A stretch of DNA of 43,461 nt from a virus (Duplodnaviria > Heunggongvirae > Uroviricota > Caudoviricetes). Below are positions 18,001-42,000 of this stretch, in pieces. The stretch lies in IMG/VR virus record IMGVR_UViG_648276647_000004, positions 1-43,461 of that record. The stretch is one strand, 5' to 3'. The number at the start of each line of letters is the position of its first letter. Position 1 is the first letter of the stretch. A program made the position numbers.

Positions 18001-21000
18001 GGGAGGTGAATAATGCCTCCATCATTACGAAAAGCCGTTGTTGCGGCTATTGGTGGCGGGGCTATTGCTATAGCATCTGTGTTAATCACTGGCCCAAGTG
18101 GTAACGATGGTCTGGAAGGCGTCAGCTACATACCATATAAAGATATCGTTGGTGTATGGACTGTATGTTACGGGCATACCGGAAAAGACATTATGCTCGG
18201 TAAAACGTATACCGAAGCAGAATGCAAAGCCCTCCTGAATAAAGACCTTGCCACTGTCGCCAGACAAATTAACCCGTACATCAAAGTCGATATACCGGAA
18301 ATAACGCGCGGCGCTCTTTACTCGTTCGTTTACAACGTTGGTGCTGGAAATTTCAGAACATCGACGCTTCTTCGCAAAATAAACCAGGGCGATATCAAAG
18401 GCGCATGTGATCAGCTACGGCGCTGGACATACGCTGGCGGTAAGCAATGGAAAGGGCTGATGACTCGCCGTGAGATTGAGCGTGAAGTCTGTTTGTGGGG
18501 GCAACAATGAGTAGAGTAACCGCGATTATCTCCGCTCTGGTTATCTGCATCATCGTCTGCCTGTCATGGGCTGTTAATCATTACCGTGATAACGCCATGA
18601 CCTACAAAGAACAGCGCGATAAAGCCACATCCATCATCGCTGATATGCAGAAGCGTCAACGTGATGTAGCAGAACTCGACGCAAGATATACAAAGGAACT
18701 TGCTGATGCTAACGCGACTATCGAAAGTCTCCGTGCTGATGTTTCTGCTGGGCGTAAGCGCCTGCAAGTCGCCGCCACCTGTGCAAAGTCAACGACCGGA
18801 GCCAGCAGCATGGGCGATGGAGAAAGCCCAAGACTTACAGCAGATGCTGAACTCAATTATTACCGTCTCCGAAGTGGAATCGACAGGATAACCGCGCAGG
18901 TTAACTACTTGCAGGAATACATCAGGACGCAATGCCTTCGATGATAGCGATAATTTTACTCATCATCCTTCACATCTGGCTCTGTAGACAGGGTGGTGAT
19001 CACTTCTGGAGTGAATCCAGATTAAACATCTCATTGCTGATGCTTGAAGTTGAGCATCTGGCGCGCGGTAAGGGGCTGCGTTGAGATAAGAGCCAGTTCA
19101 TTACAAAGCCTATCTACGGGTGGGCTTGATAATGAAACCGGAATTTATTCTGGGCAACCAGTTACGGCAGTACAGCGAAACAACCCAAGCCAGTAAGTGG
19201 GGAAATAACACTGGCAGCCACTGAAAGATGAACCTCCTGCCTTATGGCAAAAAAGATTCTTTGTGGTGGCGGACTGATGGAAAGACATCCTAATTTCAGC
19301 CAAACATTGAAGGAGTTGTTATGTCAGCAGAAGGTTTCAATAACCCATCAAAATTCCGGGATGAGTGGGATAGCAGCGTAAAGAGTAAGTGATGCCATCA
19401 CAAAAGCCATTCCCTACAGAGTGGCTTTGATAATGGCTTATACCCTACACGGGATAACTTAACTGATATCCCAACAAGCGGATAAAGAGGTTCTCAATGT
19501 CCGACATCTACCAAATCATGTTAACCACCCAAACAGGCGAAACCTTTACGGGTAAGATGTCACGACGTCAGCGTGAGCTGGTTAATGGCTTTATGCAGCC
19601 GGCTACCGAGATGGGCGAGTAGAATAACTCCATTAGGAGAATGTGGAACCATTACACTTTGAGCCGTTAACTGATATTGATAAAGGTAAATAATATCGTG
19701 GTTAAGGCTTTCTAATAGCCAGCCATTTGCAAAATCACAGTTGCAGCAGCAGCGAAAGCTGCATATGAGTTATATTTAGACTGTAACCGCGCAGTTAAGA
19801 AAAATTCGTGAAGATCTACATTTTTTTGGGGATCATCAAATGTAATTGCTACAACGGTGCTTCTACCTGTTTTGACTTTGGCTGTTGCTGATTTGATCCA
19901 TAACCCAGCCGATAAAAAACCAAAGAAAATTGATAGTGTATGATGGTCAATTAACCAGTTTTTAATTAGTAATAAATCACTCATTTTCAATCCAATTGAG
20001 ACTTTGCCATGGCACTCACCGACAAACAAGAAATGTTCTGTCGCGAGTACCTCATCGATTTAAACGCCACACAAGCGGCTATTCGGGCGGGGTACAGCGC
20101 AAAGACAGCCAACCGTACTGCGTCCGAAAACATGTCAAAACCTGACATCAAGTTAAGAATCGCTGAACTGAAAGCGCAACGCAATGATCTTGTTGGTATT
20201 AATGCAGAATATGTACTTAATCGCCTTCTTGAAATCGACCAGATGGATGTGCTTGACATTCTCCTGCAAAACGGTGAGCTAAAACCCATTAAAGACTGGC
20301 CTAAGGTATGGCGCACAACGCTATCAGGAATGGATGTCGTGGAGATGGTATCCGCAGATAGCGCCGCACTTCTGAAGAAAATCAAATGGCCTGATAAGGT
20401 CAAAAACCTCGAACTTCTTGGTAAGCATGTTTCTGTTCAGGCATTTAAAGAGCAAACATCTACAGAAATAACTGGCGCTGATGGTGGACCTGTTCGTTAT
20501 GCCGATATGTCAGAAGAGTTACTTGAAGAGAAACTGAAGGAGCTTGGTAATGGCAGGCGCTCCAATCAGCTTGAATCGAAACGCTCAGATTTATGAGTTG
20601 CACAAAGAGCTGGCTATCCGCTCAGCAAGAAAAAACCTTCTCGATTTCACTTTGTACACTAATCCGCAATACGAAACAGGTTGGTTTAACGAGCTGCTTT
20701 GTGCTGAGCTAGATCACTTTCTGGATGAAGTTAAAGCCGGAAACATGCCCAGGCTAATGGTGTTTGCCCCTCCGCGCTCAGGAAAGAGTGAGTTGTGCTC
20801 TCGCCGCTTCCCAGCGTATGTGTTAGGACAGCATCCATCATGGAACATTATCTCGTGCTCATATTCTTCTGACCTGTCAGACCGAATGAGCCGTGACGTT
20901 AAACGCATTATCACCTCTGATAAGTACGCTGATGTTTTCCCTGACGTGAAAATACCTTCAGGACGCAGTTTGGCGGGAGGTATCAACAAAACCGAGCTAT

Positions 21001-39000: not shown

Positions 39001-42000
39001 ACTCCTTTCAACGATACACCATTCTTTGGCGGTGTACAGGAGACAAAGAATGTCAGGTTGAGTGATGACGCTTACAGAACACTCATATTTTGCAAAGCAT
39101 TCACAAATATAAGCATTGCCACAATTCCCGAAATAAACAGGTTTCTAAATATTTTATTTTATCAAAGAGGGAGAGCATACTGTGTAAATTATCGAGATAT
39201 GACAATAGGAATAACGTTTGAGTTTGAGCTTGCACCATACGAAGAATCAATTCTCACGAATTATGATGTGATGCCAGTTCCAAGTGGTATTCTGGTAAAC
39301 ATACGCAAAATCATTAGTCCTTATTTTGGCTTTGCTACAGATGCATACCCTTTCAACGACGGTACATTCTACAGAGATCAACAATGAAATTAGCAGACGC
39401 ACCTAAAAAACATCCAGTTCCATTTGGTGTAAATGGTCTGAGAGAAAGCCTTCCAAATACCACTCCGGCTGGAGACAATACTGCATCATATAATCTTGGA
39501 TTCCCTCCTATCACAATGACCCTGAAATCAGCAGGAGGGCTTCCTCCTAAAGGTCAGGACATGAACCAGATTTTGTATGAGCTTTCCAGTTTATCAAGAT
39601 GGGCAAGCGCCGGGGCATTCAACAAATATGACTCAACATTTGCTACTGCGGTTGGTGGTTACCCTAAACAATCAATTATTGCTAGCGATGATGGTTCAAC
39701 CCTTTTCATTAGCACCATTGACGACAATCTCAACAACCCGAACGCTGTAGCTACAGGGTGGATTAGTTTCTCAAATATTATCAGTAAAGCTAATGGAGCC
39801 ATGCAAAAGGCACAGAATGGTTCCGACATCGAAGACAAAGGTGCTTTTCAAAATAATCTCGGACTTACATTTTCAGGAACAACAACAAGTTTTGTATCTC
39901 ATGGTCCTGGTATAATGATTATGCAGGGAGGTAAGGTGATCGCCCCTTCAGGTACTGGTAATTTTTTGGTGGTTAACTTCCCTCAGGCGTTCCCCAACGG
40001 GTGTATATCTGCGTTCGCGATTTTTGAGGATGGGGTGTACAACCAGACACCTTTCGAATTGTCAATTGTGCCGACAGATACAAACATGACAGTTGGAATT
40101 TTAAGTTCTGGCGGTAGTGTGTTCTTTAACGAACGTTCAATTAGATGGCTTGCGGTGGGATTCTGAAATGAAAAATAATGATATTTACTTCAGCAAATCA
40201 AAGAATACATTTTATTTGTATGAACTAAAACCCCGTTATGACCTTGCTGGAACATGGCCTCCTGATGCTGTTATGGTTAGCGCAGAAGTATATAATGAAT
40301 TTACTTCTGAGCCGCCTCCAGGAAAGATGAGAGGCGGTGACGATAATGGAACTCCTGCATGGATTGATATTCCTGTGAGACATAATTCTGAATTGCTAAA
40401 AGCAGAGCTTGCTACGCTCAGCAGCACTTATCAGGACGATATTGAAAAGCTCAACAGAGCATGGCTTGCTGCGGCGGTTAGTGATGGCGTGAATGAGTCA
40501 GATAAAAAGGATGCAGTTTTGGAACAAATCAATAAGAGAAAAATACAGTATGCAAATGACAGGGCGTCTATCATTGCTAGATACAAATAATTGAGTGGGG
40601 TAAATTATGTCTGATAATAACGTATCACCAGATAATGAAACGCAGTCATCAGCAGAATCAACGGTAATAAGATTCTGCCCTATATGCGGAACAAAGATGC
40701 ATCAGGGGGTGCGCTATGGATTAATGTTTTGGATTTGTCCAGAGTGTGATTTTGATGAACCGGTGTGTTCCTCTCAAGCAAAATATAGCTTTGTAAAACA
40801 AAGAGGGGCATTTGCCCCTCTTATTTATTTTGATACCTGCTTTTCAACTTCCTCAATAAACCACCTTGAGCCTTCTGGCGTAAGATGCGCAAAGTCAAAC
40901 TGCACAGGGTAAGCGTTCTTATGCCCTATTATTGCCTTGCAATAACTCTCCGTACACATCGTATCAAGTGGTGAAATATAAGTAAGCGAGTTATCTTTCG
41001 CCAGCTCTCTAAGGTATGCATCATTATCCCTCAGGTTTCTGGTTTCATCAGTCATACCCCATGGAACTGTCCTCCCGGCATTAACTCCGGTCTCTTCTAT
41101 AGTATCAATCAAAGTTTTTTTCCAGACAGGGAAAGGACCTACAAGGATGATGTTTTTGACGCCGCTATCCTTCAGGAATTTTATCGTTCCTGGAAGATAA
41201 TCACGCATAGGGTATACAGACCACAATGCAGACATCAATACTGTGTTTGGTTTGTTATCTGAAATCTCTCTTGCCACCATATCATTGATAGCCTTGCAGT
41301 GAGGTCTTCCATCTATCTGGAGGCCAATGATAGGCGGGCAAAGACTCGCGCTTCTCTGAGTAATATTTAGGTCATTACCAAAAACCGACCTTAACCCAGG
41401 CATGAGATGTGCAGCATGAGAGTCACCCCATACAACAAATGATTTTGAAGTCATTTTGTCCTGGCATTTTGAGAACGCCGTGTAATCCTGTTCTGGATTC
41501 AGGAAGCATGTATCTGGCCTCCATGAAGAGTTATCCATGCGATACTCAACAACCTGCTTCAGAGCATCTGAAAATCTAAAGCTTATGCCTCTTGTTAACA
41601 TAACAAACATGCAGGCCGACAGGGCGACAGCAAAAAGAGAAATATTAAATATTAACCTGGCTCTCTTTCTCAGCGTGCTTTCAATAATTCGGTAGGAAAG
41701 TTCTCCAAGGGCGAATGATGAGACAACACCGATAAAAATATTGATGGCGCTGAAGTCGATCTGGTAATACCTCATTGCAACAACTACCGGCCAGTGCCAT
41801 AAATAAACTGAATAAGATATCTTGCCAGCCCATTGGGCCACTCTGTTTGATGTGAATATCGAATTCTGGTCATTAGCCAGAATAACCATAGAAGCCCCCA
41901 GAACAGGAGCAAAAGTAGAATAGCTTGGCCAGTACCCGTTGCTGTGTAAGATGGTAGCAGCGACAACGATGAGCGCTATACCGTAGCCATCACAATGCTT

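Follow-up and report, generated by a model that had tools for sequence, protein, structure and literature searches.

The 43,461-nucleotide (nt) stretch analysed here (the window; the whole of IMG/VR virus record IMGVR_UViG_648276647_000004, Caudoviricetes) contains between positions 20009 and 40590 what is very probably the complete late operon of an intact-looking 43-kb lambdoid Escherichia coli prophage, and the virion encoded there appears to be a myovirus of the E217/XM1/Pam3 lineage. We favour this because nearly every gene of the operon has family and structure matches, the gene order is colinear with that of relatives, cores of the lambda attachment site (att) are present and a slippery site in the tail assembly chaperone gene is conserved; homology thus supports the identity of the parts and the frameshift signal. 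An original prediction had read the region as a contractile-tail virion module rather than lambda siphovirus tail genes, and the family and structure matches, which lie well outside what chance would give, bear this out. Likewise, the open reading frame (ORF) map returned the late ORFs where that prediction had placed them, intact and on the plus strand. The operon is a single uninterrupted plus-strand run of about 27 genes, in which neighbours abut or overlap and all structural ORFs are intact; only one substantial ORF of the interval lies on the minus strand.

The head and neck genes form a set of the E217/XM1/Pam3 type (PF06381 portal, MuF-like protein, DUF2213 protein, cement protein, major capsid protein, DUF4054 adaptor, collar and terminator). 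The portal matches the solved portal of E217 (gp19, E=1e-32) as well as those of Pam3 and XM1, and the major capsid protein matches Pa193 gp26 (6e-27) and the major capsid protein of structure 8frs (2e-25). The cement protein belongs to the families of XM1 gp53 and E217 gp24. The DUF2213 protein would have a scaffold or protease role; RefSeq calls its homologue in phage GF-2 a head maturation protease. The MuF-like protein of the original prediction was recovered as a PF04233 member, and in RefSeq the genes of its relatives begin at the equivalent of 23658. The ORF of the large terminase (TerL) opens at 20544, the likely start being ATG at 20550 (supported by a Shine-Dalgarno scan and by how RefSeq annotates a relative with 99.6% identity). 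The small terminase (TerS) had been called a P27-family protein; in fact, it belongs to PF03592, matches no NCBIfam model and has no similarity to the TerS of phiP27. Over the first ~450 nt, its gene shares 79-83% identity with terS of Cronobacter phages ES2 and phiES15. Note that the portal homologue in E. coli TW10590 (locus L013, 12623-14158) is labelled 'anti-CBASS protein Acb1 family protein' in RefSeq, which is probably an annotation artefact.

Comparison of the sheath and tube genes with contractile-tail families had been proposed as the check on the tail type, and both proteins matched (PF11863 and PF22764, respectively). The sheath also matches the solved sheaths 9b42, 8env and 8fvg (E217 gp31, Pa193 gp32) with E-values of 6e-19 to 3e-17; its nearest relatives by tblastn are the sheaths of Edno5 (75% identity), GF-2 (73%) and Vibrio phage IKEMa6-1 (66%). 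Together with five other proteins, the sheath matches chains of the cryo-electron microscopy structures of Pseudomonas phages E217 and Pa193. In the study of E217, the sheath is formed by gp31 and the tube by gp32 (PMC10329688), and a profile built from five tube sequences spans the full length of E217 gp32 (E=7e-5, hhalign).

The tail assembly chaperone, predicted to be frameshifted, indeed carries an in-frame slippery heptamer T_TTT_TTA at 31766-31772, from which a long form of 207 amino acids (aa) ending at 32005 is predicted. The -1 frame has stops at 31742, 31751 and 31763 and is open exactly from 31766, and for the -1 frame ORF downstream of the chaperone gene neither a start codon nor a Shine-Dalgarno sequence is credible. 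The in-frame TTTTTTA is kept in GF-2, Edno5, a Yersinia ruckeri prophage and E. coli Z1323CEC0013, and Pantoea phage PA-1 has TTTTTTC; in each of these relatives the heptamer leads into an extension of 76-78 codons ending at the tape-measure start. As the heptamer is conserved although the adjoining codons differ, there is good comparative evidence for a predicted programmed -1 frameshift similar to that of lambda G/GT. In E. coli SC422 (L001, 25520-25535) the site reads T5, not T6; furthermore, the DUF2213, cement, sheath and P63C genes are among the SC422 late genes annotated as frameshifted or with an internal stop. The pattern suggests homopolymer errors in the assembly, not a biological cause.

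The baseplate was described in the original prediction as Mu/P2-like. At most, this may hold for the core of spike, W and J proteins common to all simple contractile tails; the closest solved relatives are those of E217, Pa193 and XM1. Indeed, the baseplate genes include a plug of the Pam3 gp18 type, a spike of the E217 gp43 type and a J-like wedge of the gp44 type, the latter matching the solved structures of E217 gp44 (3e-14), Pa193 gp45-a and XM1 gp16. The W-like wedge was detected through phrog_120 only, and the fourth protein in the row after spike, W and J is a DUF2612 protein, not a member of the P2 gpI family. Matches of the spike to the gpV N-domain and apex motif are both below the cut-offs. 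In most E. coli relatives the similarity ends about 200 nt into the fibre gene (query position 19578, i.e., position 39586 of the window), which fits an exchange of the receptor-binding end.

The left 20 kb of the window are lambdoid and encode Int, Xis, a Rad52-type recombinase, a single-stranded DNA-binding protein (SSB), an antiterminator of the N peptide family, an S24/helix-turn-helix (HTH) repressor (cI-like), a Cro-like HTH protein, cII, O, a DnaB-type helicase, NinG and Q. The gene order is that of lambda (int, xis, recombination, N, repressor, cro, cII, O, helicase or P, nin, Q, lysis, late). The lambda int and att, P22-type N and phage-21-type lysis cassette that the original prediction had listed are all present: the N protein is 89-90% identical to N proteins of Shiga toxin (Stx) phages and ~70% identical to P22 gp24 across residues 18-103, and the lysis genes encode a P21-type holin, a lysozyme and Rz. 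The 15-bp att core at the left end has a partial second copy (gcttttttata, 43451-43461), cut by the window end; across the window there is only one int gene and one att core per end. In the near-identical relative SC422, the full second core lies beside ybhB-bioA, i.e., at the lambda attB side.

From family knowledge, the late operon would be transcribed from a Q-dependent promoter upstream of the lysis genes, with read-through into the virion module, and DNA would be packaged by a headful mechanism using the T4-type TerL. The 591-aa tape measure would set a short tail of ~80-90 nm, in comparison with Edno5 and GF-2, which have been imaged by electron microscopy as myoviruses with tails of 75-82 nm and possess lambda-like cI, cro and cII (PMC6372524). 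Fibre binding would then lead to baseplate opening, sheath contraction, release of the spike and DNA ejection, as in E217, whose scheme comprises an upward slide of the baseplate "nut", release of the tip and widening of the sheath (PMC10329688).

Positions of the features of the window, and of the island slot in the loci of relatives (own coordinates)
Feature	Position	Strand	Evidence or remark
lambda att core GCTTTTTTATACTAA	428-442		15 bp
lambda-type integrase	516-1586	-	carries lambda arm-binding domain
excisionase Xis	1564-1782	-	
Q antiterminator, two tRNAs, P21-type holin, lysozyme, Rz	16886-18944	+	
tRNA-Asn(GTT) and tRNA-Thr(TGT)	17523-17678	+	between Q and holin gene
small terminase TerS	20009-20596	+	PF03592 Terminase_2, E=5e-39; phrog_51
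large terminase TerL	20550-22070	+	T4-type Terminase_6 N and C domains; PF03237, PF17289; TIGR01630
portal	22070-23605	+	PF06381, E=3e-92
MuF-like head morphogenesis protein	23526-24344	+	PF04233, E=8e-16; 33% identity to E217 gp20
DUF2213 protein	24478-25704	+	PF09979, E=1e-49; homologous to E217 gp23
capsid cement/minor capsid protein	25708-26187	+	PF23982 XM1_gp53, 6e-31; PF22758 Phage_cement, 9e-23
major capsid protein	26191-27231	+	phrog_264, 8e-94; HK97-like
neck/head-completion protein	27235-27582	+	phrog_2085
DUF4054/E217 gp27-type head-to-tail adaptor	27595-28026	+	PF13262, 1e-19; E217 gp27, 1e-8
Neck1/tail-completion protein	28026-28592	+	phrog_222
collar-like protein	28561-28938	+	PF22755 E217_gp28, weak, 22 bits
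tail or neck terminator	28935-29450	+	PF23961, 1e-22
tail sheath	29447-30937	+	PF11863 (DUF3383/E217_gp31_N), E=5e-106, residues 10-493; phrog_205, 1e-102
tail tube	30949-31383	+	PF22764 E217_Gp32, E=5.5e-17, 62 bits (cut-off 27)
tail assembly chaperone, short form	31383-31790	+	135 aa; phrog_1932, 1e-51
chaperone, -1 frame extension	31787-32005	+	72-codon ORF ending at tape-measure start
tape measure	32002-33777	+	591 aa; phrog_873, phrog_2013, phrog_2276; position after chaperone pair
orphan accessory gene (moron)	33778-34236	-	152 aa; signal-peptide-like N terminus
variable island remnant	34237-34476		between tail and baseplate genes; indel mapping against relatives
island slot in relatives	L001 (SC422) 28085-29216; L006 28594-29965; L013 (TW10590) 24574-27845; L002 13563-15878		
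Dit-like protein	34477-35292	+	phrog_1830; PF21821, weak
Pam3 gp18-type plug	35289-35591	+	PF22479, 2e-24
baseplate hub	35512-36465	+	phrog_196, 7e-69
central spike/tail tip	36458-37150	+	solved E217 gp43 spike, Pa193 gp44, phage SN gp41, 2e-8
W-like/sheath-initiator wedge	37147-37506	+	phrog_120
J-like wedge	37503-38732	+	PF04865 Baseplate_J, 4e-9; phrog_6
DUF2612/Wedge1 protein	38743-39387	+	PF11041, 2e-51
tail fibre	39384-40166	+	PF21882; phrog_12796
tail fibre assembly protein	40168-40590	+	PF02413; phrog_188

The window was compared with its relatives by a per-gene identity table of the late proteins (against GF-2, Edno5, PA-1 and Klebsiella phage RCIP0114) and by a megablast search of 20009-40590 against 50,697 phage records. 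At the DNA level, the isolated phages in this collection gave only fragments (Cronobacter terS and the sheath region of Vibrio IKEMa6-1). At the protein level, the late operon is colinear with GF-2, Edno5, PA-1, RCIP0114 and the Y. ruckeri prophage. TerL is closest to that of PA-1 (82% by tblastn; 80% aa identity over a longer 508-aa ORF), and the capsid to Klebsiella temperate myoviruses (tblastn); the portal, MuF-like protein, cement protein, capsid and adaptor are 57-70% identical to those of RCIP0114, the capsid at 70%. Within 28561-29450 the similarity passes from the Klebsiella-type head to a Gofduovirus-type tail, i.e., it switches at the neck: collar and terminator are 82% and 72% identical to GF-2 versus 38% and 35% to RCIP0114. 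From the collar through the DUF2612 protein, identity to GF-2 and Edno5 is 66-82%, apart from tape measure, hub and spike, which are 28-53% identical to GF-2 versus 59-78% to the Y. ruckeri prophage (78% for the tape measure, which is only 28% identical to that of GF-2). This suggests that the inner ejection axis of tape measure, hub and spike has been swapped as its own sub-module. Judged by these identities, the module is a patchwork of a Pantoea PA-1-like TerL, a Klebsiella-like head, a sheath-to-wedge part of the Edwardsiella Gofduovirus type and a tape measure, hub and spike of the Y. ruckeri prophage type.

The virion genes share their structural lineage with E217 and other PB1-like phages (Pbunavirus), Vibrio XM1 and cyanophage Pam3. 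The portal, MuF-like protein, DUF2213 protein, capsid, head-to-tail adaptor, sheath, W-like wedge, spike and J-like wedge are detectably homologous to proteins of this lineage, for the cement, terminator, tube and plug there are matches to Pfam families based on E217/XM1/Pam3-type phages, and the order from head through neck and sheath to tube is the same. However, identity is as low as 23-33%. E217 is a 66-kb Pbunavirus, read here in a genome stretch without lambdoid early or lysogeny genes. Its tail measures ~139 nm, its tape measure is an 858-aa transglycosylase, and it has additional baseplate adaptors (gp33, gp34, gp36-38) and a 504-aa gp45, whereas the window holds a compact module of ~20 kb within a temperate lambdoid genome.

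The Edwardsiella myoviruses GF-2 and Edno5 (genus Gofduovirus) are closer; among isolated phages they are the nearest, ahead of RCIP0114 and PA-1. Both are temperate and lambdoid, with a cI-type repressor, a cro-like HTH regulator, cII, O, P, NinG and Q annotated in RefSeq (and an N-like gene in GF-2), and their colinear late operons resemble that of the window in having the -1 slippery heptamer as well as an accessory island that separates the tape measure gene from the baseplate genes. The 66-82% identity given above applies to collar, terminator, sheath, tube, chaperone, Dit-like protein, plug, W, J and DUF2612 protein. In contrast, the terminase subunits are unrelated at the BLAST level, the head proteins are only 30-50% identical, the tape measure 28%, the hub 42% and the spike 52%, and integrase and host are different. 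In GF-2 and Edno5 the island holds Arc-type repressor genes and the antirepressor gene ant, whereas that of the window holds an orphan gene for a secreted protein alone. As a rule of thumb of the ICTV, members of one genus share ~70% nucleotide similarity across the genome. The window falls outside Gofduovirus by this measure: megablast gave no match to GF-2 or Edno5, and head and terminase proteins are 0-50% identical.

PA-1, RCIP0114, ST899-OXA48phi17.1 and similar Klebsiella temperate myoviruses also carry a colinear module. The annotated early region of PA-1 is lambdoid (N-like, cI, cII, O, DnaB-type helicase, NinB and NinG, besides lysis genes); RCIP0114 is almost wholly unannotated (exo, ninB and a SAR endolysin only). 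PA-1 resembles the window in the acyltransferase and integrase genes past the fibres and in its TerL, and RCIP0114 in its portal, capsid and adaptor (62-70% identical). However, the tail proteins of these phages share only 33-55% identity with those of the window, the fibres or tailspikes are far larger, and RCIP0114 lacks the same chaperone frameshift layout. As GF-2, Edno5, PA-1 and RCIP0114 all carry lambda-type early or nin genes, the architecture was already known, and a lambda-like backbone joined to a contractile tail of the E217 lineage is an established genome type of Enterobacterales.

The original prediction had proposed SfV- and P27-like phages for comparison, and the genome plan, with its lambdoid early genes, its contractile tail and the O-antigen modification gene by att, is indeed broadly alike (in SfV, the modification cassette adjoins the integrase gene). 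Lambdoid regulation combined with a contractile tail is a shared design principle, a Baseplate_J domain is present, and besides the weak gpV apex motif the C-terminal 41-50 residues of the spike resemble gpV-like proteins of SfV and P27 (E=1e-3). A cassette of the SfV/phiP27 type would, however, consist of an HK97-type head, a Mu-type contractile tail and a P27-family TerS, and the corresponding set (Mu gpL-type sheath, Mu P/gp45-48-type baseplate, HK97-type head, P27-family TerS) was not found. When all 27 late proteins were compared by tblastn with SfV and phiP27 (E<=0.01), the spike match and a fragment of the tail fibre assembly protein were the only two exceptions to an otherwise empty result, and the DNA comparison with both genomes was empty for the late region. 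The virion genes belong to unrelated families: the sheath belongs to PF11863, not to the Mu gpL type, the PF03592 TerS has no NCBIfam P27-family match, and portal, capsid, sheath, spike and wedge match structures of E217, Pa193, XM1 and Pam3. A cassette of the SfV/phiP27 type is therefore very improbable, and we rejected both this kinship and the P27-family terminase on the basis of the tblastn search, the DNA comparison and the PF03592 assignment. Because of the structure matches, the right comparators are the E217/XM1/Pam3 structural lineage and, closely, GF-2 and Edno5 rather than Mu, P2, SfV or P27.

The element could also be a defective remnant, or else a tailocin or gene-transfer-agent-like element that has become domesticated, as several E. 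coli relatives have frameshifted copies or copies interrupted by an insertion sequence (IS), and the immI-like island of the window is itself cut down to a remnant. We regard this as rather unlikely. The structural ORFs are full length in comparison with GF-2, Edno5 and PA-1; both att cores, int, xis, the repressor, replication genes, Q and lysis genes are intact, as is the slippery site (T6 then A); and the close tail relative Edno5 shows spontaneous induction and plaque formation (PMC6372524). A tailocin was rejected since terminase, portal and capsid genes are present. Even less can be said for two adjacent elements or an assembly chimera, i.e., a lambda-like fragment joined to an unrelated myovirus prophage. 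Tandem prophages do occur at this locus (in Z1323CEC0013 the module is directly followed by int and xis of a second lambda-type prophage), and in no complete E. coli genome is more than 53% of the early half of the window found in one place, so that this exact mosaic is absent from the complete-genome collection. However, the single int, the one att core per end and the continuous order of Q, lysis, terminase, tail and att led us to reject a chimera; in addition, the layout of the junction from lysis genes to TerS recurs in SC422, Z1323CEC0013, TW10590, PA-1, GF-2 and Edno5, and the total of 43 kb is in line with one capsid-load for the family (GF-2 43.1 kb, Edno5 40.8 kb).

Several points nevertheless weigh against a complete E217-lineage late operon in an intact prophage. 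Induction, virion formation and contraction are predicted here from the genes, and headful packaging and Q-dependent transcription from family knowledge. The collar match to PF22755 is weak, its 22 bits being under the Pfam cut-off of 27. The tube has no significant direct match to a solved structure: phmmer against the Protein Data Bank (PDB) returned nothing, the best hit of the five-sequence profile in the PDB was the Pa193 gp33 tail tube, a weak one (E=0.24), and the single-sequence AlphaFold model has a predicted local distance difference test score (pLDDT) of 38, unfit for a fold search. Its putative identity comes from Pfam, the modest profile alignment and its position. Finally, the stretch of ~1 kb between Rz and TerS (18945-20008) has no plus-strand ORF of more than 50 aa, and thus no convincing plus-strand gene; it may hold a pac site, a promoter or a remnant. 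A hydrophobic minus-strand ORF (19712-20029) matches a hypothetical-protein gene found upstream of other terminases, and parts of the stretch are present in about half of the complete E. coli genomes. The stretch could hold a pac site or the leftover of a Rha/KilA-N gene found in relatives.

DNA of the sheath and tube genes is found in 20 of 5426 complete E. coli genomes (~0.4%), at least 80% of the module being present in 18 genomes, and 75 IMG/VR loci carry sheaths 52-100% identical to that of the window. With 97-99% protein identity, the late operon occurs on other backbones in three E. coli strains: SC422 (at the lambda attB side) has a different repressor, different replication genes and a lambda-type holin; Z1323CEC0013 has a toprim primase and, beside it, the second lambda-type prophage; and TW10590 carries an IS insertion, has IntS at tRNA-Arg/yfdC and differs in its tape measure, which is of the SLT type. 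The module thus appears to be shuffled as a unit among E. coli lambdoid prophages with different integrases, replication genes and lysis cassettes. Mosaicism acts at two levels, namely the late operon between backbones and, inside it, the sub-modules of terminase, head, sheath with wedge, and tape measure with hub and spike. Our literature search found nothing specific on E. coli prophages with an E217/GF-2-type virion, and no isolated coliphage in the searched phage collection shares the module at the DNA level. RefSeq names the genes poorly, with "DUF3383" for the sheath, "tail fiber protein" for the tube, and "DUF1073" or "anti-CBASS Acb1 family" for the portal. The locus leaves the current understanding of phage evolution unchanged; its value lies in the correct classification of rare E. 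coli lambdoid prophages with a short-tailed myovirus virion of the E217/GF-2 type.

The single minus-strand gene of the module is convergent with the tape measure gene, abuts its stop codon and is not a virion gene. Searches of Pfam, PHROGs, NCBIfam and PADLOC gave no match for its orphan product. Homologues form ten clusters, whose named sources are Enterobacterales (E. coli, Citrobacter, Enterobacter, Salmonella, Yersinia, Edwardsiella). The AlphaFold2 model is all-helical (pLDDT 84), and Foldseek found no fold match for it in PDB or BFVD. In the Y. ruckeri prophage, where the context was read, the gene accompanies the same tape-measure type at the equivalent position abutting the tape measure gene, beside Arc, Arc, Bro-N and ORF6N genes. 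In the relatives, the island between tail and baseplate genes contains P22-immI-like Arc/Arc/Ant genes or a gene with a P63C domain; in the window it is reduced to a 114-nt remnant (34324-34437), followed by a bidirectional terminator-like hairpin (34441-34454) just 5' of the first baseplate gene. It is conceivable, though unlikely, that the predicted secreted protein is a periplasmic superinfection-exclusion or immunity factor, expressed from the prophage and blocking the ejection machinery of phages with the same tail type. The putative target could be the tape measure, hub and spike of incoming phages.

Some features outside the late operon are worth mentioning. The two tRNA genes, the only matches in an Rfam scan of the whole window, lie where Stx phages carry tRNAs and toxin genes; a toxin gene is absent here. 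An HNH or homing-endonuclease-like ORF (15728-16234, plus strand) lies within the nin region, and its matches to HEase models of PADLOC are weak; in a Y. ruckeri relative, an HNH gene separates those for sheath and tube (L007, 11338-11832). Downstream of the fibre assembly gene there is a small zinc-ribbon ORF (40607-40912, plus strand), which is unannotated in the RefSeq relatives. Its first ~50 residues are conserved with gp33 of GF-2 and gp33 of Edno5, and its 3' end overlaps by 88 nt the 3' end of a convergent gene (40825-42672, minus strand). The latter, directly past the fibre genes and near attR, encodes a fused acyltransferase-3 and SGNH protein of 615 aa, which by its domain content looks like an O-antigen acetyltransferase and hence like a lysogenic-conversion gene. 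A shorter acyltransferase is found at the equivalent place beside IntS in TW10590, and another one in PA-1. Between this gene and attR, an ORF of 129 aa (42858-43247, plus strand) encodes an S24 peptidase domain alone (UmuD-like) and has no match among defence systems. Its G+C content is 53% versus ~43% in its neighbours; the ORF is truncated in SC422 and TW10590, and a homologue with 35% identity lies between the fibre and integrase genes of RCIP0114.

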